From Pyrinomonadaceae bacterium (GTDB taxonomy: Bacteria > Acidobacteriota > Blastocatellia > Pyrinomonadales > Pyrinomonadaceae): a DNA stretch of 64,000 bases. The position numbers and the translations under genes were made by a program. Location of the stretch: contig JACVRN010000003.1 in the NCBI GenBank assembly GCA_014534425.1, positions 11,391 to 75,390 of the forward strand, read 5' to 3'. Positions 3-31,283 of this stretch are shown here, piece by piece; position 1 is the first letter of the stretch; each line of letters starts with the position of its first letter. The notes beneath the pieces are model-generated. The model did not search any database. It worked only from the letters and a program-made list of their open reading frames with translations, and was not told where the DNA came from.

Positions 3-104
3 GCCCGTCAATACCTTGGATGGAACGAGGAACGCGCAGCCCTGGAGGTTAATTCATATAGAGACTCAATAGCCCGCCTTCATACGCCGCCCGCCGATAA
101 TTAA
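3..104 (+). CDS. 3' end of a CDS that starts upstream of the window; product not identifiable
   Basis: The frame is open from the window edge (...ARQYLGWNEERAALEVNSYRDSIARLHTPPADN) and ends at TAA 102-104. It is absent from the ORF track because it has no start codon in the window. Confidence 0.3.
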   Translation, partial: ARQYLGWNEERAALEVNSYRDSIARLHTPPADN

Positions 105-228
105 TCCAAGTTATCGTTCTCGAAGTTGCAACCAAATCGCAATCAAAGCTTCAGATTAGCTTCGACAACAATTCCTATAATTCATCGCATCAAGGTAGAC
201 AGTCTCGCAGAATAAGAGAGGTACTAAT

Positions 229-1017
229 ATGAGAAAATTGATGTTAGCGATTATGCTGACGGCAGTTTGTGCCGTTGCAGCTTTCGCGCAAGTAGAGACG
301 CGCGGCGGTGCCCAAGCCGCTAGCGGCGCTTCCCTAAGTCGTAGCGACAAGAGCCTCAATATAGAATCGGGCACGCGCCTCGCGGCGGAACTTGAATCTA
401 CGCTCGATGCCAGAAAGGCGCGCGTGGGCGACCGCGTAGTCTTGAGGACTACGGAAGCTATTAAAGAGAATGGCCGCACGGTTGTTAAGAAGGGCGCGCG
501 GCTCATAGGGCGCGTGACGGATGTGCAGCAGAGGGGACGCGGACGAGGCGAGTCGAGCGTCTCGCTTCTCTTCGACCGTTTAGATAGCGGCTCGCTTTCT
601 ACGCCCATCACGGCGACCATCAATTCCATCACGCAGGCACGCGCTCGCGGCAATTATGAAGATGGCCGCATGAGCACGGACGCGGACGTGCGCTCAAGCA
701 GTTCGGCGCGAACCGGCTCATCACAGCAACGCTCAGGCGGCGGAGTCCTGGGCGGCGTGACGAACACTGTCGGCGGAGTTTTGGACACCACGACGCAGAC
801 GGTCGGAGGCACGGTTAACGCCGCCGGTCAGACGGTCGGAAACACTGTCGGCAACGTCTCGAACACGGTCGGCTCTATAAGGATTGAGCAATCGTCAAGC
901 GCAGATGTTCAGGGCGGGACGACGCTCTCGCTGGCGGGCGACAACCTTCGACTGGAAAAAGGCGCGACCTTTCACCTGACGCTCAACCAGTCTGCGGGAG
1001 TTCGTGGCAATCAATAG
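229..1017 (+). CDS. Secreted hypothetical protein with a Gly/Thr-rich TVGx repeat tail
   Basis: N-terminal signal peptide (MRKLMLAIMLTAVCAVAAFAQ). C-terminal reiterated GGVxxTVGG/TVGNTVGN motifs. Followed by a hairpin plus T-run. Confidence 0.6.
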   Translation: MRKLMLAIMLTAVCAVAAFAQVETRGGAQAASGASLSRSDKSLNIESGTRLAAELESTLDARKARVGDRVVLRTTEAIKENGRTVVKKGARLIGRVTDVQQRGRGRGESSVSLLFDRLDSGSLSTPITATINSITQARARGNYEDGRMSTDADVRSSSSARTGSSQQRSGGGVLGGVTNTVGGVLDTTTQTVGGTVNAAGQTVGNTVGNVSNTVGSIRIEQSSSADVQGGTTLSLAGDNLRLEKGATFHLTLNQSAGVRGNQ

Positions 1018-1164: not shown

Positions 1165-2586
1165 ATGAGTTACTTTGTAGAGAACGTCAGGAGGCGCGCA
1201 CAGACGGCTGCGTCCGAGCCGCGCGTGCTGGAACGGCTGCGCGCCATCGTAGGCGCGGAGCATGTGCTCGTTGACGCCGAGAAGGTGGAGCCTTACGCGC
1301 AGGATGCGGTCAAGGAGAAGTTTCCGCCCGAAGCAGTGCTGTTACCACGGACTGCGGAAGAGATTGCGGCCATCCTGCGCCTGGCGAATGAAGAGCGTTT
1401 TCCTGTGACGGCGCGCGGCGGCGGCGTGGGCTACACGGGCGGCGCTGTGCCCGTGGAAGGCGGCGTGGTCATAGGCACAGACCGCATGAATGCTATTAAG
1501 GAGATAAGCCCGGACGACCTCTACGTCGTCTCGGAGCCGGGCGTCACGACTTACGAGTTGCACAGAGCCGTCGAAGCGCACAAGCTCTTCTATCCGCCCG
1601 ACCCCGCTTCTTACAAAGAGTCTTACATAGGCGGCAACATAGCCGAGAACGCTGGCGGCATGCGCTCCGCCAAGTACGGCGTGACTAAACATTACGTGCT
1701 CGGTCTTGAAGTCGTAACGCCCACCGGAGAGATTATCAGGACGGGCGGCAAGACGAGCAAGAACGTTGTGGGCTTTGACCTGACGGGTTTGATGTGCGGC
1801 TCGGAAGGAATGCTGGGCATCATCACGGAAGCTACGCTCAGGCTTGTGCCTCTGCCCGAAGCGACAGAGACCGTGCGCGCTCTCTTTCATTCCATGAAGG
1901 AAGCCTGCGCCTGTGTCGCGCGCTTCTCACGCGCACGCGTCACGCCCGTGGCGATTGAAGTCCTGGATAAGAACTCTATCAAAGCCGTCGAGAGCGAGTT
2001 CGCGTTCGGCTTGCCGGAAGAAGCCGAGGCGCTTCTTCTGGTCTCCGTCGATGGCGCTCTCGAAGAAGTCGTCAGGGCTGCAAACGCCGTCGAAGAGATT
2101 CTGCTCGAAGGCGGAGGCTTCTCTGTTCTGCGCGCCGCGACACGCGAAGATGAAGATCGTCTGTGGGACGTGCGACGTGCGCTTTCGCCTTCTATGAAGA
2201 AGTACGGGACGCTGAAGCTGAACGAGGATGTGGTAGTGCCGCGCTCGCGCGTGCCGGAGCTTGTAGAGCAGGTGGAAGAGATTGGTCGCCGTCACCGAAC
2301 CTTCGTAGCCAACTTCGGCCACGCTGGCGACGGAAACATTCACGTCAACTTCATGTGCGACCGCGAAGACCCTGAATCAATCGCACGCGCTCGGCTGGCG
2401 GTGCGCGATACGTTCCGTGTTGCTGTAGAGCTTGGCGGCACCATAAGCGGCGAACACGGCATAGGCTACGTCAAAGCGCCTTACCTTGACATGGCGCTCG
2501 ACGCTTCGACCATTGATGCGATGATGAGAATTAAACGTGCGCTAGACCCGAACGGCATCTTGAATCCGGGGAAAATGTTTGTCTGA
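1165..2586 (+). CDS. glcD: FAD-linked oxidase, GlcD / D-lactate dehydrogenase family
   Basis: 473 aa. The N-terminal half looks like an FAD-binding PCMH-type domain (ARGGGVGYTGGAVP). The C-terminal GEHGIGYVK...LDPNGILNPGK is typical of the GlcD/Dld family. Confidence 0.8.
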   Translation: MSYFVENVRRRAQTAASEPRVLERLRAIVGAEHVLVDAEKVEPYAQDAVKEKFPPEAVLLPRTAEEIAAILRLANEERFPVTARGGGVGYTGGAVPVEGGVVIGTDRMNAIKEISPDDLYVVSEPGVTTYELHRAVEAHKLFYPPDPASYKESYIGGNIAENAGGMRSAKYGVTKHYVLGLEVVTPTGEIIRTGGKTSKNVVGFDLTGLMCGSEGMLGIITEATLRLVPLPEATETVRALFHSMKEACACVARFSRARVTPVAIEVLDKNSIKAVESEFAFGLPEEAEALLLVSVDGALEEVVRAANAVEEILLEGGGFSVLRAATREDEDRLWDVRRALSPSMKKYGTLKLNEDVVVPRSRVPELVEQVEEIGRRHRTFVANFGHAGDGNIHVNFMCDREDPESIARARLAVRDTFRVAVELGGTISGEHGIGYVKAPYLDMALDASTIDAMMRIKRALDPNGILNPGKMFV

Positions 2587-2598
2587 CATTTTAGATTA

Positions 2599-3186
2599 AT
2601 GCTTTCGACTCTCTTAGAGATACAGCGTTTGAAGCGGCTTGAGCGCACGGGTTGGACTCTGCGCGGGCAGCCGCCGGGCACGGAATCCGTCGCGGCTCAC
2701 TCTTACGGTGTGGCCGTGGCGGCGATGCTGCTGGCGGATGAAATCAGTGCGCGCGGTATCGAGATTGATACTGCGATGCTTTTGCGTTTAGCCGTGATGC
2801 ACGATTGGGCCGAGGCGCGTCTGGGCGATATGCCGCGCACGGGCGGCGAGTATTTCGGGGCCGAGGCGCGCCAGCTTGCCGAGCGCGCGGCCTTTGACGA
2901 CATAGTGCGCGGGCTTGGCACGCAAATTGAAAAGAGTTACAGCAGCCTTCATGAAGATTATGAGCAACGCGCAAGTCTGGAGGCACGTCTAGTCAAGGCT
3001 GCCGACGTTGTTGACCTGCTGGTGCAGGCTTTGGCTTTCGAGCGCGCGGGCGTGCGCGGGCTTGATGAATTCTGGGAAGGCGTCGATGAGCGCTATTTTC
3101 AACTTGAAGGCGTGGCCGGAGAAGTCGTAGGCGAAGTGATGCGGCTTCTGCTTGAGGCTCACGTCGAAGTGACAGGGAAGCCTTGA
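2599..3186 (+). CDS. HD-domain phosphohydrolase (YfbR-like 5'-nucleotidase family)
   Basis: LKRLERTGW...ESVAAHS...HDWAEARLGDMP contains the HD motif in the YfbR-like arrangement. Confidence 0.7.
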   Translation: MLSTLLEIQRLKRLERTGWTLRGQPPGTESVAAHSYGVAVAAMLLADEISARGIEIDTAMLLRLAVMHDWAEARLGDMPRTGGEYFGAEARQLAERAAFDDIVRGLGTQIEKSYSSLHEDYEQRASLEARLVKAADVVDLLVQALAFERAGVRGLDEFWEGVDERYFQLEGVAGEVVGEVMRLLLEAHVEVTGKP

Positions 3187-3237
3187 GCAGCACGCCCTTT
3201 CAGGTTTTAGAGAAAAGAGTTTGGAGTTGAAGCGAGC

Positions 3238-3663
3238 ATGGGCAACTGGCTGATGCAGTTTGTTCCCGACCTGACGTGGCAAAATATTATCCTCGGCATA
3301 ATCTTTTTCGTAGTCACTTTCGCTGCCAGCAGCGCGCTGGTCTCCTACGTGCTTGTTAGATTGCCCGCCACGTTCTTTCATCCTTCGCATGACCGAGCCA
3401 TACTGGTAGACCGTCATCACGTCGTTCGCTGGAGCGGGATTCTGGTCAAAAACATAATCGGGTTCGTGCTGGTCTTACTGGGAATCATCATGGCCGTGCC
3501 GGGCGTGCCCGGGCCTGGATTCCTGACGATTCTCTTCGGCATAGCGCTCCTGGATTTCCCAGGCAAGCGCTGGCTCGAATACAAGATAGTGAGCCGCCCC
3601 AAAGTCTTTCAAGCCATCAACGCGCTGAGGCGAAAATTCGATAAGCCTCCGCTCGTGCTCTGA
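3238..3663 (+). CDS. Small membrane protein, PGPGW-motif family
   Basis: Three hydrophobic segments. The PGVPGPGFLTILFGIALLDFPGKRW motif is present. Confidence 0.6.
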   Translation: MGNWLMQFVPDLTWQNIILGIIFFVVTFAASSALVSYVLVRLPATFFHPSHDRAILVDRHHVVRWSGILVKNIIGFVLVLLGIIMAVPGVPGPGFLTILFGIALLDFPGKRWLEYKIVSRPKVFQAINALRRKFDKPPLVL

Positions 3664-3775
3664 AGACTTCATGGCGCGCTCGGAAAATTTTTACGCCTTG
3701 TGGTAGATGAATAAGCGACACAATCCATGCTGCGCTCGCGTAGCGAACCGGCCTAATATGCGTCTGCGGGCTGCG

Positions 3776-3875: not shown

Positions 3876-4952
3876 ATGGCTGATTCTCTATTTCCACAAA
3901 CAAAAAGGCTGGGGCGATTGGCGGTTCTCTGCCTGTTGACTATAAGTCTTCTGACGGCACAGGGCTGCAAGACTCTGTTCGGCGACATTGCCAAACGCAC
4001 AGTCACAGTGCCGCCGCTTCTCAAGCCGCTTCAAACGGCGACCTCTGATCAACTTATCGCGGAGGTTAATCGCGTGGCCGCCGTGCGCTCTCTGCGCGGC
4101 AGGGTCGACATAGAATTTCAGGACACGTCGTTTTCGGAATTCGGCATCAACGACAAGTACCGCACGGCTGAAGGCTCCGTCATAGTGCAGCGACCCGGAC
4201 AGGTTTATCTTGAGGTCAACGGCCCGTTCGGCGTTGAGATAGCGCGCATGACTTCGGACGGCGAGCATTTCCGCGTGGCCGTTCTCAAGGGCGACGACAA
4301 GTATCGCCGCTTTGTGAAGGGCACGAACAACGCGCGCTATCAAACCTTCGAGATGGGCGACGGCGAGGCGGCGCGTGATAAAGAGAAGATGAGCGAGCAG
4401 CGAGCCGTCAGCGCGCTCTCGAATCTCCGCCCGCAGCATTTGACGGATGCTCTCCTGGTTCGTCCAATAATGTTGGAAAAGAACGTGCTGCCTAAAGTCG
4501 TCTACACGCAGAGCGAGTTTTACGAAGAGGAAGCCGCGCCGAATACGGGAGATAAACAGGCGCGCTCGAATAAGACGGGCCGCGTTGTGCGCGGCTACTA
4601 TTTTCTGGATGAGATAGTTGAAGCCACGGACGGTCGCGCTCATCTAACGCGCCGTTTCTGGTTCGACCGCGTGAACGGCATACGCTTCGCGCGCATGCAG
4701 ACCTTCGACGAGCAGGGCGACCTCGTCACGGATGTTACTTACAGCAACACGAAACCCTTCGGCGAAGGCGCACGCGTTAATCTGCCTTCGCGCATAGAGC
4801 TGTCGCGCCCGCATGACGGATACAAACTGGCCCTCACCTATCAATCGCCGGAAGAGGCCATAGTCGATCGTCAATATCAGCCGGACATCTTTATCCTTGA
4901 AAACAAGTGGCAACTGCGCGAAGTCGATTTGGACGAGCGACAAAAGAAGTGA
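3876..4952 (+). CDS. Lipoprotein, LolB/DUF4292-like lipoprotein-sorting fold (family-level guess)
   Basis: Lipobox (LLTISLLTAQGC) after the internal ATG at 3876. The central region resembles the LolA/LolB-like beta-fold pattern. Its stop abuts the FtsX permease start at 4953. Confidence 0.55.
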   Translation: MADSLFPQTKRLGRLAVLCLLTISLLTAQGCKTLFGDIAKRTVTVPPLLKPLQTATSDQLIAEVNRVAAVRSLRGRVDIEFQDTSFSEFGINDKYRTAEGSVIVQRPGQVYLEVNGPFGVEIARMTSDGEHFRVAVLKGDDKYRRFVKGTNNARYQTFEMGDGEAARDKEKMSEQRAVSALSNLRPQHLTDALLVRPIMLEKNVLPKVVYTQSEFYEEEAAPNTGDKQARSNKTGRVVRGYYFLDEIVEATDGRAHLTRRFWFDRVNGIRFARMQTFDEQGDLVTDVTYSNTKPFGEGARVNLPSRIELSRPHDGYKLALTYQSPEEAIVDRQYQPDIFILENKWQLREVDLDERQKK

Positions 4953-6089
4953 ATGGATAATCTGGTCACAGCAAATATCAGGCAGAGACCTTTGCGCTCG
5001 CTGGTGAGTGTGGCGGGGGTGGCGTTGGGCGTGGCGCTGGTGATGCTGTTTACCGGACTCTCGCGCGGGATGTCGAATGACCTTAAGCGGCGCTCTCAGA
5101 ATCTGCGCGCGGAGATAATCTTTACGCGCCCAGGCTCTATGGAGTTGACAAGCTCTACGGCCAACCTGAGCACGAAATACGTGGAGCGCCTGCAAGCCGT
5201 GGATGGCGTGCAGTCGGCTGTGCCCGTGATTCGTTACATCTCGCAGGGCAAGAGCGGGTTCGGTCTTGAGCAGATAGAGGGCGTTGACTGGGAGCCTTTC
5301 GCCAGGATGAACGAGATTCAACTCATCGCCGGGCGCGCCCCGCAATCGGTTGACCCTGCGAGCGCGGATGACCCGAACACGCCGGGCGAAGTCGTCATTG
5401 ATGAAAGAAAAGCTTCGAGCAATAACCTCTCGGTCGGGAGCGAAATCAAGCTCTTCGGTGACAAGCCCTTTAAAGTCGTGGGCATCTATGCTCCTGAATC
5501 CGGCGCTCGCGTCAAGATGAGCCTGAGCGCCATGCAGAGAGAACTGGAATCTGCGGGCAAGTGTCAGTACATTCTTGTCAAATGCAAAGACGGAGTGGGC
5601 GAAATAACGGTCGCTCAGCGCATAGAGGCCGCGCCGGAGACGAAGGGCAACAAGATTCAGTTCACGCGCGATGTCTTCAAGGGCATTGAAAGCAGCATCC
5701 CTTACCTGGGAGTCTTCCTGCGCGTGCTAGTGGGCTTGGCCGCGCTGGTGAGCGCGCTCATAGTCATGCTCGCCATGTACACTACGATTACAGAGCGCAC
5801 GCGCGAGATAGGAATTCTGAAAGCCCTCGGAGCATCGCGCGCCTACATCGTCGGCGTGATAGAGAAAGAGGCCATACTAATCAGCGTGCTTGGACTCGTC
5901 ACAGGTTTCGTGGCTGCGTTCGTCGCGGGCTTCATGATTCAACGAGCCTACGGTCTTGTTTTCGAATACGGTTGGGGATGGGCTTTGACTTCAGCCGCCA
6001 TAGGACTTCTGGGCGGAGTCCTGGGCGCTCTTTATCCGGCTGTACGCGCAGCTAATCTTGATCCGGTGAGCGCTATATCTTATGAATAA
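4953..6089 (+). CDS. ABC transporter permease, FtsX/MacB/LolC-E type
   Basis: N-terminal TM segment, a large periplasmic domain and a C-terminal FtsX-like 3-TM block (ERTREIGILKALGA). Confidence 0.8.
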   Translation: MDNLVTANIRQRPLRSLVSVAGVALGVALVMLFTGLSRGMSNDLKRRSQNLRAEIIFTRPGSMELTSSTANLSTKYVERLQAVDGVQSAVPVIRYISQGKSGFGLEQIEGVDWEPFARMNEIQLIAGRAPQSVDPASADDPNTPGEVVIDERKASSNNLSVGSEIKLFGDKPFKVVGIYAPESGARVKMSLSAMQRELESAGKCQYILVKCKDGVGEITVAQRIEAAPETKGNKIQFTRDVFKGIESSIPYLGVFLRVLVGLAALVSALIVMLAMYTTITERTREIGILKALGASRAYIVGVIEKEAILISVLGLVTGFVAAFVAGFMIQRAYGLVFEYGWGWALTSAAIGLLGGVLGALYPAVRAANLDPVSAISYE

Positions 6090-6168
6090 GCTTTCAGCCG
6101 TCAGCCATCAGCATTCAGCCAGCAATGACTGAAGAAAAGCTGATAGCTGAAAGCTGATAGCTGACTGC
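6090..6168. repeat. Family-A hairpin, arms made of (NNTCAGC)n heptads
   Basis: TTTCAGC CGTCAGC CATCAGC ATTCAGC faces GCTGATA GCTGAAA GCTGATA GCTGACT. It begins 1 nt after the permease stop codon. Confidence 0.8.
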
Positions 6169-6173
6169 TCTAA

Positions 6174-6869
6174 ATGAGAACTATCCTTAAAGCTGAGAAC
6201 CTGGTGAAGACGTATCGCGTCGGGCAGGTGGACGTGCAGGCTTTGCGCGGCGTCTCGCTGGACGTGCAGGAGGGAGAGTTCTTAGCCATCATGGGGCCGT
6301 CGGGCTGCGGCAAGTCAACCATGCTGCACCTGCTCGGAGGACTTCTGACGCCCACTAGCGGGCGCATCATTATTGACGATGAAGACCTGACGGCTGCGAC
6401 TGACGCCCGCCGCACGGACATACGACGGCGCAAGATTGGCTTTGTCTTTCAGCGCTTCAATCTCTTCCCGACGCTCACAGCCGAAGGCAACCTGCGGCTG
6501 GCCGAGCGCATACACGGCGGCAACGGTGCTGACGACCCCGAAAGACGCAGAGAGGTTCTGCGACTGCTTCGGCTGGAAGACAAGATGCATCACAAGCCGC
6601 TTGAACTGTCGGGCGGCGAACAGCAGAGAGTCGCCCTGGCGCGTGCTGTGGTGACTCGCCCTGCGATTGTGCTGGCGGACGAGCCTACAGGGAATCTGGA
6701 TTCGGAGAACTCGGCGCTCGTGCTCAACATGTTTCAGGAGTTGAACTACCGCTTCAACCAGACCATCATCATGATTACGCACAACCCGGAGGCCGCAGCC
6801 ATGTGCCGCCGCATCATACAAATGCGCGACGGGCGGATTGTGGATTCGACGGGCGGCGTTTTGCTGTAG
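6174..6869 (+). CDS. ABC transporter ATP-binding protein (LolD/MacB-like)
   Basis: Walker [10 protein letters not shown], signature [14 protein letters not shown], Walker [13 protein letters not shown]. Confidence 0.9.
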
Positions 6870-7103
6870 GAGGACTGGAGGCTGAAGGACAGCCTTATCA
6901 AGATGCTTTAAGTCAGGATCACGCAGCCATAGGGGATGAAAGAGTGTCGGCTGAGCTGAACTATATTGATGGTGACACTAATGCTCAGAAGATTATCACT
7001 TAGGGCATCAGAAACAGGTTGAAGTCGGCTTTTCAGACACCCTCTATAACCTCACAATGAAATCTCCCGCCCGCAAGCAGCGTAGTCTGATATAGAGGCC
7101 CGC

Positions 7104-7762
7104 TTGAGCCATCCGGCAGTCCGGCACAAATTTTCCATTTTTCATCTTTTCATTGACAATAGCTGCTGCCCGTCAAGTAGCGGATGCTCCAGAACCGAGG
7201 CTTTCATCTCCAGGTGTTACTCCTACGGCGGGGATTACGACGACTTCAGTTGCACTTGTACGGGTTGCGACTGGTGTGGAGGCTCGCCTGTTCTGATAGA
7301 TGTTGCGGGCGACGGGTTGGCGCTGACTGGCGTTCAGGGCGGTGTCACTTTTGATCTTAACGGTAACGGCACAAGAGATAAGCTATCATGGACAAACGTC
7401 GGTTCGGATGACGCGTGGCTTGCTCTAGACCGTGATGGCAACGGGACAATAGACAGGGGTTCCGAATTATTCGGCGATTTCACGCCTCAGCCCGCTTCAT
7501 CCACGCCGAACGGTTTTCTAGCTCTCGCAGAGTTTGATAAAACAGAAAATTGGGCGTGAAATCTATCTCGCTCGATTACAGGCTGTCAAAGAAAACTGAC
7601 GAATTCGGTAATGAGTTTCGCTACCGGGCGAAGGTTAGAGATGCAAAGGGATTGCAAGTAGGACGCTGGGCATGGTGTATGGATTTTCAAATAAAATTAT
7701 CCATAGAGGTTCCATATCTCTCCGCCCACAGAAAGCTTGTTGCACTTTACAAACTGCTATAA
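7104..7762 (+). pseudogene. Decayed remnant of a secreted Asp/Asn/Gly-rich (calcium-binding-like DxDxNG) repeat protein
   Basis: The sequence is split over two frames (7104-7559 and 7550-7762). The first frame ends ...[11 protein letters not shown] and the second resumes (L)[28 protein letters not shown]. No signal peptide is present, and the region is locally AT-richer. Confidence 0.5.
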
Positions 7763-7803
7763 CCCTCTGTTATTTCCCTTATTTTTCCCTTATAATTCAG
7801 GCC

Positions 7804-8148
7804 GTGCAGTATCTTTTGCGAACTCTCAAGAAGCTTCTCTTCTGGTCATATGGGCGCAGCACGTGGCAGTACGATGTTTTGTGCGCGCTCATACTGGTCT
7901 TCATCTTCCTGACGCCTCAAAGCTGGTTTCGCACAGGCGAACTCAGGCAGGTAGAGGCGCATCCAACACCTTCTGCTCGCACGTATCTGCTTGTGGAGCC
8001 TTCTGAAAAGGGTGTGCAAATTGACAGAGCGGAACTGGAACGCCGCGTGCGTAGCGCAACGGGGAGGCCCGAAGTTACGGTCACAGGCTGGCAGCCCAGG
8101 CGTGACGAGCAGGGACGCGTGGTCGCCTACGAGGTTGACATACGCTAA
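7804..8148 (+). CDS. Hypothetical small membrane protein
   Basis: An in-frame GTG at 7804 precedes a TM segment (YDVLCALILVFIFLTP). A TATAAT at 7791-7796 lies just upstream. The 5' extension back to 7672 runs through the decayed region. Confidence 0.4.
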   Translation: MQYLLRTLKKLLFWSYGRSTWQYDVLCALILVFIFLTPQSWFRTGELRQVEAHPTPSARTYLLVEPSEKGVQIDRAELERRVRSATGRPEVTVTGWQPRRDEQGRVVAYEVDIR

Positions 8149-25377: not shown

Positions 25378-26310
25378 TCAGGAAACGGCGTGACTGCCTA
25401 CGGCCATGAAAACATCTTCTATGGTCAGGCGTCTCTCGTAAAAGGAGACAACTCCATCATGCATGAGAACGACCTCTTTGTGAAGAGTTGCGAGCGCCAG
25501 GCGGTCGCCCTGAAAAGCGCAATCGATAATCGCTCCCTCGACCGTCACGTCGCGCAAGTCTTCACGGCTCTCCAGCTTCTCCGCCAGCGCCGTGGCCGCC
25601 TCTGCATCCGTCATCTCAATCCGCACGGGCAGACCGTCCGAGAGCTTTCCGACCAACTCTTCAATACGGCCTGAGCGAATCACATGGCCCTGCTCCATGA
25701 TGACTACGGAGGTGCAGAAATCCGCAAGCTCCGTCAGAATGTGCGAACTGACGACGAGCGTCGTGCCCAGAGCGCCAAGCTCCTTTATCAACTCGCACAA
25801 ATCAATGCGCGCCACAGGGTCAAGGCCCGAAGCTGGCTCGTCCAACAGCAGCACCTTCGGCGCGTGCAGGAGCGTCTTGGCAATCACAAGGCGCTGGCGC
25901 ATGCCGCGCGAGAGCGCCCCGACCGGCTCATAATATTTAGAGGCCAGATTCGTCAGTTCAAGCACGCCCGCAATGCGCCGCTCAATCTGTTCTTTCGGGA
26001 CTCTGTGCGCCTTGGCGAAGTACTGCATGAAGTGGCGCACGGTCAGTTCATCGTAGAGGCCGAAGGTGTCCGGCACGTAGCCGACAATTTCGTGAAGCTG
26101 TTTAGGCTCTGTGCCGACCTCTATACCCGCCACTTCTATCTTCCCGCTTGTGGGCCTGAGCAAGCCCGCGAGCATCTTCAGCAGCGTAGTCTTGCCCGCG
26201 CCGTTCGGCCCAATCAGCCCGCAAATCTCACCCGCAGGGACATACAAATCAACATCCCGCACAGCAGGCCGTGTGTCGTAATATTTCGTGAGGCCGAGCG
26301 TATTAATCAT
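25378..26310 (-). CDS. ABC transporter ATP-binding protein (ABC-2/CcmA-like) with an extra C-terminal domain
   Basis: Walker A GPNGAGKTT, signature LSRGMRQR, Walker B VLLLDEPASGLD. Confidence 0.9.
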   Translation of the reverse strand: MINTLGLTKYYDTRPAVRDVDLYVPAGEICGLIGPNGAGKTTLLKMLAGLLRPTSGKIEVAGIEVGTEPKQLHEIVGYVPDTFGLYDELTVRHFMQYFAKAHRVPKEQIERRIAGVLELTNLASKYYEPVGALSRGMRQRLVIAKTLLHAPKVLLLDEPASGLDPVARIDLCELIKELGALGTTLVVSSHILTELADFCTSVVIMEQGHVIRSGRIEELVGKLSDGLPVRIEMTDAEAATALAEKLESREDLRDVTVEGAIIDCAFQGDRLALATLHKEVVLMHDGVVSFYERRLTIEDVFMAVGSHAVS

Positions 26311-26413
26311 CTTATCAGTAGAAGACTTTCAAAATATTAGACGCGCAGCGCGATGAAAAGTTCCGCAAGTTGAACCGTCGCTTGAGACGAACCGCCAGGC
26401 GCTCTTTTGCTCT

Positions 26414-26821
26414 CTAGATTCCGCTCTCTGATTTTCGCAGCGTCCGCCATCCGGGCTGAAGCCTGACCCAGTATGCCATCAGTAGCCCGACCACTATGTA
26501 GATAAAAGTCAGCGCGATGCTCAGGTAAGTGATGCGGCGGTTGGCCGTCAGAGCGTCGACTCCCTGGCCCGGCTCGAAGACATACATGATGGGGATGAAG
26601 GCGAAGATGAGCGAAATCAGGCACCAGACCGCGAGCACCACCACGGCCTTGATGACGATTGTGCCGCGCCCGTCGCTCGCACGCGCGAAGTTTATGACGG
26701 AGCGTATGATGACGTAGAGGGGAAACAGGACTGCGACCGCCGCGAAGGTGTAGAGCGTAAGCATGCCTATGATGTCTTCAATCTTCATCGAATCACCTTG
26801 AGCTTCGTACGAACTTTGCAA
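26414..26821 (-). CDS. Hypothetical 4-TM membrane protein
   Basis: 135 aa with four hydrophobic segments. It is the first gene of the minus-strand ABC cluster. Confidence 0.5.
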   Translation of the reverse strand: MQSSYEAQGDSMKIEDIIGMLTLYTFAAVAVLFPLYVIIRSVINFARASDGRGTIVIKAVVVLAVWCLISLIFAFIPIMYVFEPGQGVDALTANRRITYLSIALTFIYIVVGLLMAYWVRLQPGWRTLRKSESGI

Positions 26822-26846
26822 GAGCTTTTTAACCCGCGAGGCCCTT

Positions 26847-26854
26847 CCGGCGGT
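26847..26854. repeat. Target-site duplication, left copy (CCGGCGGT)
   Basis: An identical 8-mer directly abuts both terminal inverted repeats of the element. Confidence 0.85.
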
Positions 26855-26878
26855 GGTAGTGTCCTAAAAGTGTGTTGC

Positions 26879-27043
26879 TCACTTTGCTATGAAAGAAATA
26901 ACTTGGTCGAAGTTTAAGAGTATTTCTTGACCGTTATTATTAACCCACCACCACATTTTCCATTCGTACTTAATAACTGTAATGTCTAAAATGTTACCAT
27001 TAGAACAAGTGACTTTATAACTTTTACCATTCTCAAGAAACAT
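26879..27043 (-). CDS. Untracked 54-aa ORF coupled to the transposase gene
   Basis: MFLENGKSYKVTCSNGNILDITVIKYEWKMWWWVNNNGQEILLNFDQVISFIAK. An AAGGAG overlaps the transposase TAA stop, 8 nt before the ATG at 27043. The ORF's TGA stop lies inside the left terminal IR. Confidence 0.45.
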   Translation of the reverse strand: MFLENGKSYKVTCSNGNILDITVIKYEWKMWWWVNNNGQEILLNFDQVISFIAK

Positions 27044-27056
27044 AACAAAATCTCCT

Positions 27057-28001
27057 TTAGGCGTGTAGTAAGTCTTTCAAGCTCCAAACTGTTTTAGTCA
27101 ATCCTGCTTCCATAGCTGGGGTACAACGGATTGTAGAATGAAGCCTGCAAAAATTATAGAACGCGAAGTGCAGAGCAAGCGCAGCTTTCATGTTTGACCA
27201 TTTCTTAGAGAAAGCGTTTGTTAATCTAGTCAAGCGGCGCGTGGACATTCTAAGCGTTAAGTTCTGTCTTTCGATGTGCGAAGTGTTGATTCGTTCGGGG
27301 TCTGGATTACCGATAACGGGAATCTTCTTTGCTCCGATACATTCAGCCGGAGAATAGCGTCTCTCGCCTTCTGGATTCTGCGCGTACATCTTCACTAATT
27401 GAGCATAATCAACGCGAGTGCCTAAGCTATGAGAAACAGCGTCAGGATAGCCACCAAAGCCGTCTGTGGTTAATTGAAAGTGCGTGCCTGTAGCAAGGTA
27501 TAGCTTTTCGATGAAAGCGTGAGTGTCGCTTGCTGTACGCCTTCCAAGATGCCAAGCAAGAATTAACTTTGTATCACGGTCTATCGCTATGAATGTATAA
27601 CAGTCTCCGATTGTTTCATCGTTCAGGTCTTGACGCTTCTTTGTCTTTTCCTTCATCTGAATGAAGCCCCAAATCTCATCAGCTTGAACGTCTTTGACAG
27701 GCACATTCTTAATCTTCTCTTCAAGCAATCTTTCACACTTCCCGCCAACATGTATCAGTAAGTCCAGTACGGTGTCACGGTGTACGCCAGTGATTCTTTC
27801 TATGCTTCTAACTGAGCAGCCTTCAAGTAGGAGCTTGAGGCACATGACGGCTTTTTCTTCTGCAAGGTACATAGAGCCAAGCGGCTTGTCTTTCGGCTCT
27901 AGGAATGTCACGCCACAATCCAAGCAACGGTAACGCTGATTGCCTTTGCGGTCTTTGCCGAAGCGTTTGAAGTTTGATGAAGAGCAAGACGTACAGTTCA
28001 T
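27057..28001 (-). CDS. IS1-family transposase (single-ORF type with N-terminal zinc ribbon)
   Basis: The zinc ribbon is CTSC...YRCLDCG. The DDE region (QADEIWGFI, LTTDGFGGY, IERQNLTLR...RLTNAFSKK) parallels E. coli IS1 InsB (EMDEQWGYV, MTDGWPLY, IERHNLNLRQ...SLSFSKS). Confidence 0.85.
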   Translation of the reverse strand: MNCTSCSSSNFKRFGKDRKGNQRYRCLDCGVTFLEPKDKPLGSMYLAEEKAVMCLKLLLEGCSVRSIERITGVHRDTVLDLLIHVGGKCERLLEEKIKNVPVKDVQADEIWGFIQMKEKTKKRQDLNDETIGDCYTFIAIDRDTKLILAWHLGRRTASDTHAFIEKLYLATGTHFQLTTDGFGGYPDAVSHSLGTRVDYAQLVKMYAQNPEGERRYSPAECIGAKKIPVIGNPDPERINTSHIERQNLTLRMSTRRLTRLTNAFSKKWSNMKAALALHFAFYNFCRLHSTIRCTPAMEAGLTKTVWSLKDLLHA

Positions 28002-28010
28002 ATTTTCTCC

Positions 28011-28099
28011 TGTGTTGCTAAGTTGCTATTATGCTTGAGAACTCAAATTAAGTCAAGCATAAAGTACCGTAGCAACACAAATTAACGATTTATCGTTAA
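28011..28099. promoter_or_regulatory. Three dyad symmetries in the divergent transposase / HTH-peptidase control region
   Basis: Outer dyad: TGTGTTGCTA (28011-28020) / TAGCAACACA (28070-28079). Inner dyad: TTATGCTTGA (28029-28038) / TCAAGCATAA (28053-28062). Third dyad: TTAACGAT-tt-ATCGTTAA (28082-28099). Confidence 0.55.
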
Positions 28100-28114
28100 T
28101 CCGTAATTTCCACA

Positions 28115-28143
28115 TTGACACAGAACCTATACGTGTGTAAAGT
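28115..28143 (+). promoter_or_regulatory. Candidate sigma70 promoter for the HTH-M78 gene
   Basis: TTGACA (28115-28120), a 17-nt spacer, then TAAAGT (28138-28143). A GGAGG ribosome-binding site lies about 8 nt before the ATG at 28183. Confidence 0.5.
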
Positions 28144-28182
28144 GCTGATGACTTTCATAATTTACCAACGGAGGAACCAGAT

Positions 28183-29283
28183 ATGACAGATATGAAAGTA
28201 TTTCCCCCAAGCAAGTACATTAAAGAAGCTTTAGAGGGGCGCGGCTGGAATCAAACCGACTTAGCGTTGATTTTAGGGAGAGGCGCTAAATTTGTTAGTG
28301 ACCTTGTTACAGATAAGAAAAGAGTAGACCCGGAAATTGCTCAGGAATTGGCAGTAGTCTTTAACACAACACCGCAGTATTGGCTTGAACTGGAAAACAC
28401 ATTTAGGTTAGCCCAAACAGATTATGTAGATGAAGCTATCGAAAAGCGAACTAAGCTATTAACGAACTATCCTATTAAAGAGATGCAAAAGCGTGGCTGG
28501 ATTAGTCAGACCGAAAAGCTAGAAGAACTTGAGCCAGAACTTAAAAAGTTTTTTGAAAAAGACGATTTAGAAAAGGATGTAGAACTAAGAGTATCTTACA
28601 AACGAACGGGCAAAGAGGCTAACGCAAATGCGGCTGAAAAGGCCTGGCTTTATCGAGCAAAGCACCTCGCAAGGATGTTACCCGTAGCAGTTTTTGACAT
28701 CAATACTATAGATAAGTTGATAGCGCATCTACGAAAGCTTGCGGCAAAGTCAGGTGCGGTTGTTCGTGTTGCCGAGGCGCTTGCTAACTATGGCATTCGG
28801 TTCGTAGTAGTTGAGCCTCTTCCGAGAGCAAAGATTGATGGGGCGGCATTCTGGCTTGATGAAAATTCGCCAGTTATAGCCATGTCACTTCGCTTTAATA
28901 ACATAGGTAATTTTTGGTTTACCTTAATGCACGAACTCTCTCACATCAAACACAGAGATGCTTTTTCCTTAGATGACTTAGAGGCTTCACCATCTGATGA
29001 AACCGAAATAAGGGCTAATAAAGAGGCGGCAAATGCTCTAGTACCAGAAGAACGGCTGGAAAAATTTATCAAGATGTATTCCCCGTATTATTCGGAAGCG
29101 CGAATCAATAATTTGGCGACGCAGTTAAACATTCATCCTGGAATAATTGTAGGCCAGCTACAGTACCGAAAAGAAGTCGCATACAACACACACACGAAAA
29201 TAATGCCAAAGGTGCGGGAACTGGCTACTACTTCGGCATTTACGGATGGCTGGGGGCATCCAATTCCACAAGTCAGATACTAA
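28183..29283 (+). CDS. Fusion of XRE/HigA-like HTH with ImmA/IrrE (M78, COG2856) zinc metallopeptidase
   Basis: The N-terminal HTH (GWNQTDLALILGRGAKFVSDLVTDKKRVDPEIAQELAVVFNTTPQYWLELENTF) resembles HigA antitoxins. The C-terminal domain has HELSHIKHRD (HExxH). Confidence 0.8.
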   Translation: MTDMKVFPPSKYIKEALEGRGWNQTDLALILGRGAKFVSDLVTDKKRVDPEIAQELAVVFNTTPQYWLELENTFRLAQTDYVDEAIEKRTKLLTNYPIKEMQKRGWISQTEKLEELEPELKKFFEKDDLEKDVELRVSYKRTGKEANANAAEKAWLYRAKHLARMLPVAVFDINTIDKLIAHLRKLAAKSGAVVRVAEALANYGIRFVVVEPLPRAKIDGAAFWLDENSPVIAMSLRFNNIGNFWFTLMHELSHIKHRDAFSLDDLEASPSDETEIRANKEAANALVPEERLEKFIKMYSPYYSEARINNLATQLNIHPGIIVGQLQYRKEVAYNTHTKIMPKVRELATTSAFTDGWGHPIPQVRY

Positions 29284-29293
29284 GGAGTAGAGA

Positions 29294-29797
29294 ATGGATT
29301 ACAACACCAGAATGGCAGACATCATGCGGGAATGGCAGATGGAAACTGGCGCAGATGCGATAGATGTTGATGCTGCTTCCGCTTGGGCTATAGAGACGGG
29401 TAGGTATCAGCGAAAACCTCCTTCAATGCAGCAATTATGCAAGCAGGATATGAAGAGGGCACTACAGCATTCGCGCTATACAGACCCGCAAGGGAATGTG
29501 ATACGAACCATGCACGCGGTTAGACTCCCTTATCACGGCGAGCAACTTACGTTTTATATTGATATTAGAGTAGCGAAGCCGGATATTACGCAGATGTCGT
29601 TTGACCAGAACTTTCAGCGAATCGGCAATGATGTTAAGCGCCATAGTATTGAAAAACATTCCTATGACATAAACAATCCTTATGGCGCGACGCTTCCGGC
29701 CTATGACTACGACTTTAATCAGCACGCCGAAGATGCCCGTATGTCAGGCGAGTATGATGATACGTATGAAGATGATGGGGATGATGAGCTAGATTAG
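29294..29797 (+). CDS. Hypothetical 167-aa protein with an acidic C-terminal tail; family not recognised
   Basis: It starts 10 nt after the HTH-M78 stop, so the two genes look like an operon. It ends ...EYDDTYEDDGDDELD. Confidence 0.55.
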   Translation: MDYNTRMADIMREWQMETGADAIDVDAASAWAIETGRYQRKPPSMQQLCKQDMKRALQHSRYTDPQGNVIRTMHAVRLPYHGEQLTFYIDIRVAKPDITQMSFDQNFQRIGNDVKRHSIEKHSYDINNPYGATLPAYDYDFNQHAEDARMSGEYDDTYEDDGDDELD

Positions 29798-30060
29798 CTT
29801 TCGGTGCTACGCGCATTCCATCTTGCCTTCGCTGCTTTCTTAGCGATAGCAGAGCGTTCCTTTGCAGATAGTTTCTGCGCTCTGGCCTTACCACCCTTAG
29901 ACCCGCCTTTCTGTCCACGCCGGACAGCCTGCGGGTCTTTCTCTTTGACGGGCTGCGGTTCGGCTTCTGTTTCTTCTATAATGAAGTCCAGAATCGCTTT
30001 GGCAAACTGATTCTCGTCTGTGATGCGTTTCCGGCTCTTTTTGCTAGACCGCTTTGGCAT
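29794..30060 (-). CDS. Lys/Arg-rich 88-aa protein (possible nucleic-acid binder)
   Basis: It reads MPKRSSKKSRKR...KGGSKGGKARAQKLSAKERSAIAKKAAKARW. Its stop codon overlaps the stop of the convergent 167-aa gene. No clear ribosome-binding site is seen. Confidence 0.45.
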   Translation of the reverse strand: MPKRSSKKSRKRITDENQFAKAILDFIIEETEAEPQPVKEKDPQAVRRGQKGGSKGGKARAQKLSAKERSAIAKKAAKARWNARSTES

Positions 30061-30136
30061 GAGTGAGATATAGCACAGCCGGATTTAGAAGGCTAGAAAT
30101 AGTTCAGAGTCAGCAACACAGATTTAGGACACTACC

Positions 30137-30144
30137 CCGGCGGT
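30137..30144. repeat. Target-site duplication, right copy (CCGGCGGT)
   Basis: Identical to 26847-26854 and directly abuts the right IR. Confidence 0.85.
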
Positions 30145-30182
30145 TATTGTATATGCATGGCGGATGATAAAATAGGGCTGTA

Positions 30183-31283
30183 ATGAAAGAAAAAGCGCAT
30201 TTGACGGAACTCACGCAGGCGGAGCTGTCCGATTGGGTCGAAGGGCAGGGCGAGCCTCGTTATCGCGGGCGGCAGATTTTCGCGGCGCTGCACGCGCGGC
30301 GTCTACGCTCCTGGGATGAGATGACGGACTTGCCCCTGAGCTTTAGAGAGAAGCTGAAGAAGGAGGCAGCCGTCACAACTCTCACGGTCGAGTCGCGCTA
30401 CATTTCAGAGGACGGCACGCGTCGTTATCTGATGAAGACGCACGACAATCTTCCCGTCGAGACGGTCTTTATTCCCGAAGAGCGGCGCGACACCATCTGC
30501 TTTTCGTCACAGTCGGGCTGCCCGCTTCAATGCGACTTCTGTTTGACGGCGCGCCTCGGACTGCTTCGCACTCTGACCGCAGGCGAGATGGTCGAGCAGA
30601 TAATAGTTGCGCTCAATGATGCTTACGGCGTCGGAGAGAAGTTGCCGCGCGGGACGAATCTGGTGGCGATGGGAGCGGGCGAGCCTTTTCTGGCCTTCGA
30701 GCCACTGATGAAAGCCCTGCGTATCATGGCAGACCCCAAAGGACTTCACATAGTTCCCAGACGCGTGACGGTCTCGACCGCAGGCATCGTGCCGCGCATT
30801 AAAGAACTGGCGACGATTCCAGAGCGCCCGCACCTTGCTATCTCTCTGGCCGCGCCTACGGATGAACTACGCAATCAGTTAATGCCTATAAATAAGAAGT
30901 GGCCGCTTGAAGAGTTGCTCGCGGCTTGCAAGGAGTTTGAGAAATCTTTGAAGCCGGGCGAGCGTTTTACGTTCGAGTACGTGATGCTCGACGGCGTGAA
31001 CGACGCGGACGAGCAGGCGCGGCAGTTGGCGAATCTCTTAAACCGTCACGGGTTGGCGAGGGTTAAAGTAAATCTGATTCCGCACAACACTGCGGAGCCT
31101 CTGCCCTATCGCCCGTCTTCCTGGGAGAGAATCGAAAGCTTCAAAGAGATTCTGGCGTCAAAGGGCGTGAACGCCTTCGTCAGGCGGCCCAGGGGGCGCG
31201 ACATCTATGCCGCCTGCGGACAACTCGCAGCCCGCACGCCCACAGCAGGCGAAGGCCGCTCACTCCTGCATAAAATAGCCTGA
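30183..31283 (+). CDS. rlmN: 23S rRNA/tRNA (adenine-C2)-methyltransferase RlmN
   Basis: Radical SAM motif GCPLQCDFC. The RYRGRQIF N-terminus and the MGAGEP and C-terminal IYAACGQL motifs are present. Confidence 0.9.
   Translation: MKEKAHLTELTQAELSDWVEGQGEPRYRGRQIFAALHARRLRSWDEMTDLPLSFREKLKKEAAVTTLTVESRYISEDGTRRYLMKTHDNLPVETVFIPEERRDTICFSSQSGCPLQCDFCLTARLGLLRTLTAGEMVEQIIVALNDAYGVGEKLPRGTNLVAMGAGEPFLAFEPLMKALRIMADPKGLHIVPRRVTVSTAGIVPRIKELATIPERPHLAISLAAPTDELRNQLMPINKKWPLEELLAACKEFEKSLKPGERFTFEYVMLDGVNDADEQARQLANLLNRHGLARVKVNLIPHNTAEPLPYRPSSWERIESFKEILASKGVNAFVRRPRGRDIYAACGQLAARTPTAGEGRSLLHKIA

Follow-up and report, generated by a model that had tools for sequence, protein, structure and literature searches.

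The 64,000-nucleotide stretch of contig JACVRN010000003.1 from a Pyrinomonadaceae bacterium that was analysed here (the window, whose numbering is used throughout) carries at 26855-30136 a single IS1-family transposon of 3,282 bp, in which a transposase gene and three further genes, g1, g2 and g3, lie between the terminal repeats. The g1 gene encodes a HigA-like XRE helix-turn-helix (HTH) domain fused to an M78 zinc peptidase, and g2 encodes a small acidic protein of an uncurated family. Judged from comparison with related elements, g3, the transposase and the inverted repeats are the backbone of the transposon, and g1 and g2 are its cargo. The likeliest reading, which we consider an evenly balanced proposition drawn by analogy, is that this pair forms a self-regulated, protease-gated toxin-antitoxin (TA) or abortive-infection cassette of the PD-lambda-2 kind.

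The linkage of g1 and g2 was counted by running hidden Markov models (HMMs) for g1, g2, g3 and the transposase over the fetched loci, which carry L numbers below. The g1 gene lay directly upstream of g2 in 32/32 distinct loci, a set that includes the window, L050 and truncated contigs. This gives a positive answer to a check proposed in the preliminary description of this DNA, namely whether homologues of the 167-residue protein co-occur with XRE-M78 fusions. A profile scan of genomes with the g2 alignment found 11 loci in Acidobacteriota, Nitrospirota and Abditibacteriota, again with g1 directly upstream in 11/11. The linkage persists to ~20-30% g2 identity, in L013, L037, L040 and a Mesorhizobium loti plasmid. 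For the plasmid, hhalign ties an annotated hypothetical protein to the g2 family with 96.6% probability; tblastn of g2 against plasmids gave no match, and the Mesorhizobium homologue was recognised by profile comparison only. Across 14 complete elements, the pairwise identities of g1 and g2 were correlated (Spearman 0.82), and the corresponding values were 0.07 for g1 with the transposase and 0.04 for g2 with the transposase. The ratio of nonsynonymous to synonymous substitution rates (dN/dS) between related elements was 0.05-0.12 for all four genes, a rough estimate with dS near saturation, and indicates that all four are under purifying selection. These values, together with many homologues for each, bear out as real genes the three open reading frames (ORFs) called in the preliminary description, whose coordinates were also confirmed.

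Sister elements reveal how the cargo is exchanged. A backbone 87% identical to that of the window holds a g1-g2 pair in which g1 shares only 43% and g2 only 20% identity with its window counterpart. In L027 the transposase and g3 are each 92% identical to those of the window and the repeats are the same, and a gene for a P63C-domain protein stands in place of g1-g2, as it also does in L028. Alignment of the window element with L027/L028 by blastn is limited to ~27070-28057 and ~29816-30137; the stop and resumption of homology at these points define an exchangeable slot between them. The preliminary description had grouped all three genes as one cassette. Membership of g3 was rejected, as this gene is inherited with the transposase and inverted repeat and occurs with quite different cargo. 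Close relatives, with transposases 80-92% identical, retain g3 with other cargo (P63C, DUF3800), and more distant ones contain HigB/Gp49-type cassettes. All five of the g3 homologues that were looked up (5/5) lie at the repeat-proximal end of IS1-family elements, co-oriented with the transposase and with varied cargo. The earlier term 'passenger' also understates the position of g1-g2, as the four-gene layout is kept from Acidobacteriota to the Mesorhizobium plasmid, down to 34% g1 identity, and the pair is swapped between transposon backbones.

The cargo of other elements comprises a P63C-domain protein (L027, where the element spans 4924-7954, L028 and L044), a divergent M78 and g2 pair (L029), a Gp49-like toxin with an HI1420-type HTH protein and SecB, resembling toxin-antitoxin-chaperone (TAC) systems (L031), a Gp49-like toxin with an XRE HTH protein and a 98-aa ORF (L039), DUF3800 (L032, transposase 80% identical to the window's), a HARE-HTH protein with an aspartyl-protease-like protein and DUF5678 (L046-L049), and HigB-like, g1-like and g2-like genes (L040). 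A second slot is seen in L001, downstream of the transposase at 2097-3695, and contains an N6_N4 methylase fused to an Mrr-type endonuclease domain. By these family matches the sister cargo is largely TA- or defence-like (Gp49/HigB-type toxin with HTH, with or without SecB, DUF3800 and the methylase-Mrr fusion). Separately, in the distant relative L013, a 210-aa ORF downstream of the transposase (61-693, reverse strand) matches PADLOC 'ST_Kinase' at 2.2e-22 and has no Pfam match.

The pair is also found without its vehicle. Intact g1-g2 without a transposase is present in L003, L004 and L018-L023; P0295, which is the g1 protein in L018-L022, has index entries in 62 blocks of the sequence collection. 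Recognisable remnants of the insertion sequence (IS) control region are retained in L004 and L008. Collectively, the cargo swaps and the transposase-free pairs argue for g1-g2 as a self-contained module and against a role in regulating transposition. A phage origin of the cassette was rejected, as it was found on one viral contig only, which carries the same IS element. Two further observations concern decay of the element. In the L003/L018 lineage the transposase and g3 are lost and the intact g1-g2 has a constant chromosomal setting, with Arr, HD-domain and BrnTA genes as neighbours. L008 (3832-6775) has a fragmented transposase and a frameshifted g1, with g2 and g3 intact.

The limits of the transposon were drawn from its ends. 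A repeat search returned a 37-nt inverted-repeat pair around the region; by eye the repeats are 32 nt long, start with GGTAGTG and match at 28/32 positions. With the 8-bp target-site duplication CCGGCGGT that abuts both ends, these repeats uphold the view of the preliminary description that the module rides on an IS. Seven sequence-distinct relatives (eight fetched loci) that have both ends in the contig show 8-bp duplications of their own, and the core of the left repeat is also found at the ends of L001, L007, L027-L029 and L011. The duplications differ by element (CCCTTTTT in L001, CTTCTTCC in L002, TAAAAATC in L007, GGTTTGAG in L027/L028 and CGCCAGCC in L029). The same repeat core with a different duplication each time indicates that the unit, including its cargo, has transposed repeatedly. 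The GC content is 44% in the element versus 56% in the flanks and in the Pyrinomonadaceae genome. The transposon is inserted in an intergenic gap between a small membrane-protein gene (26414-26821) and a gene for an RlmN-like radical-SAM ribosomal RNA methyltransferase (30183-31283). An Rfam scan of 26000-31000 gave no match. A 54-aa ORF at 26879-27043 on the reverse strand, between the left repeat and the transposase stop codon, was considered and is probably not a gene, having no homologue in related elements and no family match.

The IS1 family is defined in ISfinder by terminal inverted repeats and an 8-9-bp target duplication. The element has both, along with a DDE transposase that bears an N-terminal zinc-binding domain, and is an IS1-family member on these grounds. 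The classical insA/insB' two-ORF frameshift layout is absent; the transposase is a single 314-aa ORF, which places the element with the single-ORF IS1 members. It matches NCBIfam NF033558 at 104.3 bits (cut-off 100) and NF050000 at 44.5 bits (cut-off 28), as well as Pfam DDE_Tnp_IS1. An IS that carries passenger genes is a 'transporter IS' (tIS) in the terms of ISfinder. As in a tIS, the non-transposition genes within the inverted repeats move with the element, a co-movement evident from the target duplications and from the layout shared by independent insertions with different duplications. The element differs from a tIS in that the cargo has a fixed position, between the transposase promoter and g3, and in that the slot has been refilled with a variety of cassettes in at least four phyla.

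Features of the transposon and its cargo, in window coordinates
Feature	Position	Strand	Basis or remark
Left target-site duplication CCGGCGGT, 8 bp	26847..26854	.	Same octamer found at the right end
Left terminal inverted repeat (IRL) GGTAGTGTCCTAAAAGTGTGTTGCTCACTTTG	26855..26886	+	Matches reverse complement of right repeat, 28/32
Transposase, IS1-family DDE, single ORF of 314 aa, N-terminal zinc ribbon	27057..28001	-	NCBIfam, Pfam
Predicted transposase promoter	28028..28062	-	-35 TTGACT 28056-28051, -10 CATAAT 28033-28028 (promoter scan)
Cargo slot: g1 promoter/operator, g1 and g2, swapped as a unit	28058..29815 (about)	+	Blastn breakpoints, identity correlations
Candidate operator, perfect palindrome ATTAACGAT-TT-ATCGTTAAT	28081..28100	+	14 bp upstream of g1 -35 box
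Predicted g1-g2 promoter	28115..28143	+	TTGACA, 17-nt spacer, TAAAGT; best promoter match of the region, 10/12
g1, 366 aa, HigA-like XRE HTH and IrrE/ImmA/CapP-type M78 zinc peptidase	28183..29283	+	Pfam, PADLOC, AlphaFold2/Foldseek
g2, 167 aa, pI 4.7, uncurated family	29294..29797	+	Homologue family; conserved C-terminal tail SGEYDD(S/T)Y(D/E)
g3, 88 aa, basic, pI 10.6, transposon backbone gene	29794..30060	-	92% identical in L027/L028
Right terminal inverted repeat (IRR)	30105..30136	-	Inverted-repeat pair and comparison with relatives
Right target-site duplication CCGGCGGT, 8 bp	30137..30144	.	Perfect direct repeat of left copy

The g1 protein matches Pfam HTH_3 over residues 13-67 and Peptidase_M78 (PF06114) over residues 208-316, both above the gathering score (27.8 bits against a cut-off of 22 for the peptidase), which agrees with the earlier reading of gene 1 as a HigA/XRE HTH joined to an ImmA/IrrE peptidase. 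With PF06114, an HExxH motif (HELSH) and a downstream Glu ligand, g1 is assigned by sequence to the ImmA/IrrE family (COG2856, Peptidase_M78). Residues H250, E251, H254 and E275 are invariant across 42 homologues and are conserved in a more diverse set too, which makes an active peptidase probable. The homologues of g1 number more than 1,100. Against the PADLOC profile PD-Lambda-2_B (PDLC03982) the protein scores E 4.7e-52 and 175.6 bits, aligning residues 9-347 with positions 60-395 of 402, and PADLOC also returned weak capP and capH matches. The AlphaFold2 model (mean predicted local distance difference test score, pLDDT, 85.5) placed the N-terminal domain with HigA structures in Foldseek (template modelling score 0.76-0.86, root-mean-square deviation 1.2-1.8 Å) and the C-terminal half with IrrE (3dti) and CapP (7t5t). 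In phmmer g1 matched 2icp at 3.8e-6, and it scored 33.9 bits against the HigA model TIGR02607, under the cut-off of 47.7. In keeping with the preliminary description, no HigB-like ORF precedes g1 in the 181-bp gap to the transposase, and no HigB/RelE-fold toxin partner was found among the ORFs of the element or in its Pfam and NCBIfam matches.

The g2 start codon lies 10 nt past the g1 stop, behind AGGAG, and the protein ends in SGEYDDTYEDDGDDELD. Its family is large: 40 close homologues were found, and with the family profile 538 representative clusters score at E ≤ 1e-3, against 200 under the stricter limit of E ≤ 1e-10. Conserved motifs in the closer family are DPQG, NDVKRHSIEKQSYDLNN and, at the C-terminus, A..A...SGEYDD. 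The preliminary description could not place this protein, and searches with Pfam, NCBIfam, PHROGs and PADLOC gave no match either, nor did a sequence profile search of the PDB. The same was true for 82 diverse g2 relatives, which had no family match in scans that included PADLOC. The AlphaFold2 model is confident (pLDDT 89.5) and consists of three helices, a four-stranded sheet, a long helix, a short helix and a disordered acidic tail. A Foldseek search of this model against PDB and BFVD returned nothing at E < 0.1 and no RelE-like match. This tail, which is conserved, looks like either a cleavage target or a tail of the antitoxin type.

A 181-bp gap separates the transposase start (28001) from the divergent g1. 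The predicted transposase promoter lies inside a perfect 10-bp palindrome, TTATGCTTGA (28029-28038) and TCAAGCATAA (28053-28062), which recurs among relatives irrespective of cargo; DNA homology with the P63C-carrying element stops right at this palindrome. Most relatives have a TTGAC(A/G)-type promoter at the same place as the predicted g1-g2 promoter. The palindrome at 28081-28100 is unique in the window, with 0.12 chance matches expected, and would be bound by the g1 HTH. Relatives have different palindromes in the same spot beside the g1 -35 box, as expected if operators co-evolve with their HTH. A subterminal repeat motif, TGTGTTGCT, recurs beside the transposase start codon (28011-28019) and appears at 28071-28088 as AGCAACACAAATTAACGA, where it shows 83% identity with the inner portion of the right repeat; (A/G)CAACACA is found in the same intergenic region of L001, L002, L007, L010 and L011. 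This recurring motif may serve as a binding site for the transposase or be the vestige of an internal end.

The g3 gene is convergent with g2, and their stop codons (29794-29796 and 29795-29797) overlap. Pfam gave no match for g3. More than 2,300 homologues were found, of which the one in Mesorhizobium is annotated 'histone H1'. The C-terminal motif of g3 is KGG...ARA..LS...R..IA..AA.ARW, and the protein is a small accessory factor that probably binds DNA. The same motif makes up the N-terminus of the P63C proteins present in L027 (5227-6300) and L044 instead of g1-g2, which accounts for the match of g3 to phrog_2384 (positions 5-38 of 338). The L027 P63C promoter has extra ATGCTTGC/GCAAGCAT half-sites like those of the transposase-promoter palindrome, and this hints that the motif shared by g3 and P63C may bind half-sites of this type.

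The closest comparison for g1-g2 is with PD-lambda-2 of E. coli ECOR42 (Vassallo et al. 2022), an experimentally validated abortive-infection defence against lambda-vir in which the Xre-peptidase B is toxic alone, the HigB-like A rescues, and C is needed only for defence (PMC9519451). By profile g1 corresponds to component B, with the same architecture of HigA-like Xre HTH and M78 peptidase, and a further operon gene follows it. In the relatives L016 and L040, in the latter case inside an IS1 element, a HigB-like gene (PF05015) is followed by g1-like and g2-like genes, so that g2 stands where C would in a layout like that of PD-lambda-2, and the HigB-like gene is optional. We considered whether g1-g2 is the decayed remnant of a HigB system and rejected this, as the HigB-less form is the majority, intact and under purifying selection. 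The window cassette differs from PD-lambda-2 in being carried by an IS1-family transposon and in its downstream gene, which encodes ~170 aa and has no match to the PADLOC profile PD-Lambda-2_C; PD-lambda-2C would be about twice as long as g2, to judge by the length of the E. coli system, 2,625 bp. A variant operon was seen on the Thauera sp. K11 plasmid pTX1 (L024, 2668-5642), which encodes a RelE/ParE-family (HigB-like) toxin, an Xre-M78 protein (2.4e-45 against PD-Lambda-2_B), a 78-aa g2-like ORF (8e-9 against the g2 HMM) and a 419-aa protein that matches the PADLOC candidate PDC-S54 at 7.6e-162. These matches suggest that the third position of an L024-type operon is itself replaceable.

Other systems share parts of this design. 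ImmR/ImmA of ICEBs1, DdrO/IrrE of Deinococcus and CapH/CapP of cyclic oligonucleotide-based anti-phage signalling systems (CBASS) use the same peptidase family, with an intact HExxH...E, paired with an XRE-type HTH, and by analogy the expected logic would be signal-activated cleavage of a partner. Unlike these, g1 joins the HTH and peptidase in one chain, its HTH resembles that of the HigA antitoxin, and the window has no adjacent regulated system except g2. Three-component systems of RelE/PIN toxin and Xre-COG2856 were predicted by Makarova et al. 2009 (PMC2701414); the fused Xre-COG2856 protein as the hub of small mobile operons agrees with that prediction, as do the HigB-containing relatives, whereas the commonest form here lacks a RelE/PIN toxin and instead carries, downstream, an obligate partner from a family not described before. 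TA pairs integrated in Tn3-family transposons lie beside the transposition genes and are swapped between transposons (Lima-Mendez et al. 2020, PMC7157771). The present elements likewise have small TA-type cassettes, the Gp49/HTH type included, adjoining transposition genes, but the vehicle is a ~3-kb IS1-family element with a DDE transposase and neither resolvase nor res site, and a conserved accessory gene, g3, bounds the slot.

The strong match of g1 to PD-Lambda-2_B, a component of a validated abortive-infection system, makes a TA or defence reading of g1-g2 reasonable. To that extent the suggestion of an addiction, abortive-infection or defence module in the preliminary description stands by analogy; the HigB-like and C components of such a system were not matched. 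From these likenesses we infer operator binding, cleavage, toxicity and phage defence by g1-g2, in the following order. A g1 HTH dimer would sit on the palindrome beside its own promoter and hold the operon low. A stress or phage cue would then switch on the peptidase domain, as in ImmA, IrrE and CapP, and the peptidase would cleave a defined partner, either within its own chain, at the HTH linker, or in g2, at the conserved C-terminal helix and acidic tail. Cleavage would turn g1-g2 from an inert complex into a growth-arresting one. In this scheme g2 would be the substrate or the neutralising partner of g1, and either protein may be the toxic member. The cassette would protect the host population from phage, resist loss, or both, and either property would explain its carriage by a transposon and its survival after transposase decay.

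Several points weigh against a PD-lambda-2-like function. The window has no HigB-like component A, which in PD-lambda-2 neutralises the toxic B, and neither g2 nor its 82 relatives correspond to PD-Lambda-2_C in a comparison by PADLOC profile, so the PD-lambda-2 data transfer by analogy only. No catalytic or toxin fold is recognisable in g2 from the Foldseek searches of PDB and BFVD. Pairs of Xre and COG2856 proteins are not always toxic, as pneumococcal COG2856 proteins were inert on overexpression (PMC4257102). The candidate operator sits upstream of the -35 box, not over the promoter. Finally, the insertion neighbourhood, with an ABC transporter and a PBP1-type penicillin-binding protein, is of housekeeping character and is no defence island.

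Some of the same evidence could be read as addiction only, in which g1-g2 would be a post-segregational or anti-loss module that stabilises the transposon or the host replicon, comparable to the Tn3-family TA pairs, with no role in phage defence. The pair outlasts the transposase in L003, L004, L018-L022 and L008, it adjoins the transposase promoter much as the Tn3-family pairs lie beside transposition genes (PMC7157771), it occurs on the Mesorhizobium plasmid, and it is nearly absent from viral contigs (1 locus). We nevertheless regard this explanation as unlikely, as the closest characterised relative of g1 acts in abortive infection, and classical post-segregational killing is of little benefit to an IS present as a single chromosomal copy.

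Alternatively, the pair may be non-toxic, with g1 a stress-responsive repressor-protease that controls expression of g2, and g2 serving another role, for example as a DNA or protein mimic through its acidic tail, an anti-defence factor or a nucleoid-interacting factor. The conserved acidic, Tyr-rich tail of g2 (pI 4.7), the model without a toxin-like fold and the inert COG2856 proteins (PMC4257102) are consistent with such a role. Modules of the CapH/CapP type, which g1 matches weakly at capP and capH, are pure regulators; these adjoin the system that they regulate, however, and here g2 would be the only regulated gene. HigB-like toxins join the module in L016 and L040 and sister slots are filled with TA-type cassettes, and we judge a purely regulatory pair to be quite improbable. 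A transposition switch, in which g1 would act like ImmR/ImmA of ICEBs1 to repress the divergent transposase promoter and free it under stress with g2 as co-factor, is very doubtful: the divergent arrangement around a common 181-bp control region, the four-gene layout conserved to 34% g1 identity and the control of mobile-element induction by other M78/XRE pairs (PMC2701414) speak for it, but backbones with transposases 80-92% identical work with unrelated cargo (P63C, DUF3800) and no g1-g2, the homology breakpoint leaves the transposase promoter in the backbone and the 28081-28100 palindrome in the cargo, g1 and the transposase do not co-diverge (Spearman 0.07), and g1-g2 is found without any transposase and with HigB in non-IS contexts.

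The PD-lambda-2-like function and the exchangeable slot can be joined in a broader reading, which we offer tentatively and think has the weaker prospect of holding in full. A widespread IS1-family lineage, seen in Acidobacteriota, Nitrospirota, Abditibacteriota and Pseudomonadota, would be a cassette shuttle with a refillable slot, and its commonest filler would be a two-component protease-gated abortive-infection system not described previously. The backbone would stay constant, and g3, like InsA, may act as a repressor of the transposase promoter inside its palindrome. The slot, bracketed by backbone, would be refilled through recombination with TA or defence cassettes. In the commonest filler, the Xre-M78 sensor would cleave, or be neutralised by, a g2 protein of new fold (more than 500 sequence clusters), and addition of the PD-lambda-2 HigB-like gene would be optional.

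Taken singly, the IS1 transposase, the Xre-M78 fusion and the IS with passenger genes all belong to types already known. In the literature searched we found no description of the g2 family and its obligate association with proteins of the PD-lambda-2B type, of the HigB-less two-gene form as the dominant variant, or of a lineage of IS1 elements that has both a conserved accessory gene and a cargo slot that is fixed and refillable, although ISfinder may already list such a subgroup. Nor did the search find a mechanistic follow-up on PD-lambda-2 or on defence by HigB and M78 proteins. The comparisons suggest that the PD-lambda-2 Xre-peptidase works with interchangeable partners, which would include PD-lambda-2C, PDC-S54 and the g2 family with or without HigB. 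The g1-g2 pair would be a minimal two-gene version that could ease dissection of the PD-lambda-2 mechanism, and a large uncurated family with no fold match gains an obligate functional context. It does appear that even the smallest transposons can hold a fixed cargo slot for TA or defence cassettes, suggesting a route of spread between phyla that island-based searches for defence genes would miss.

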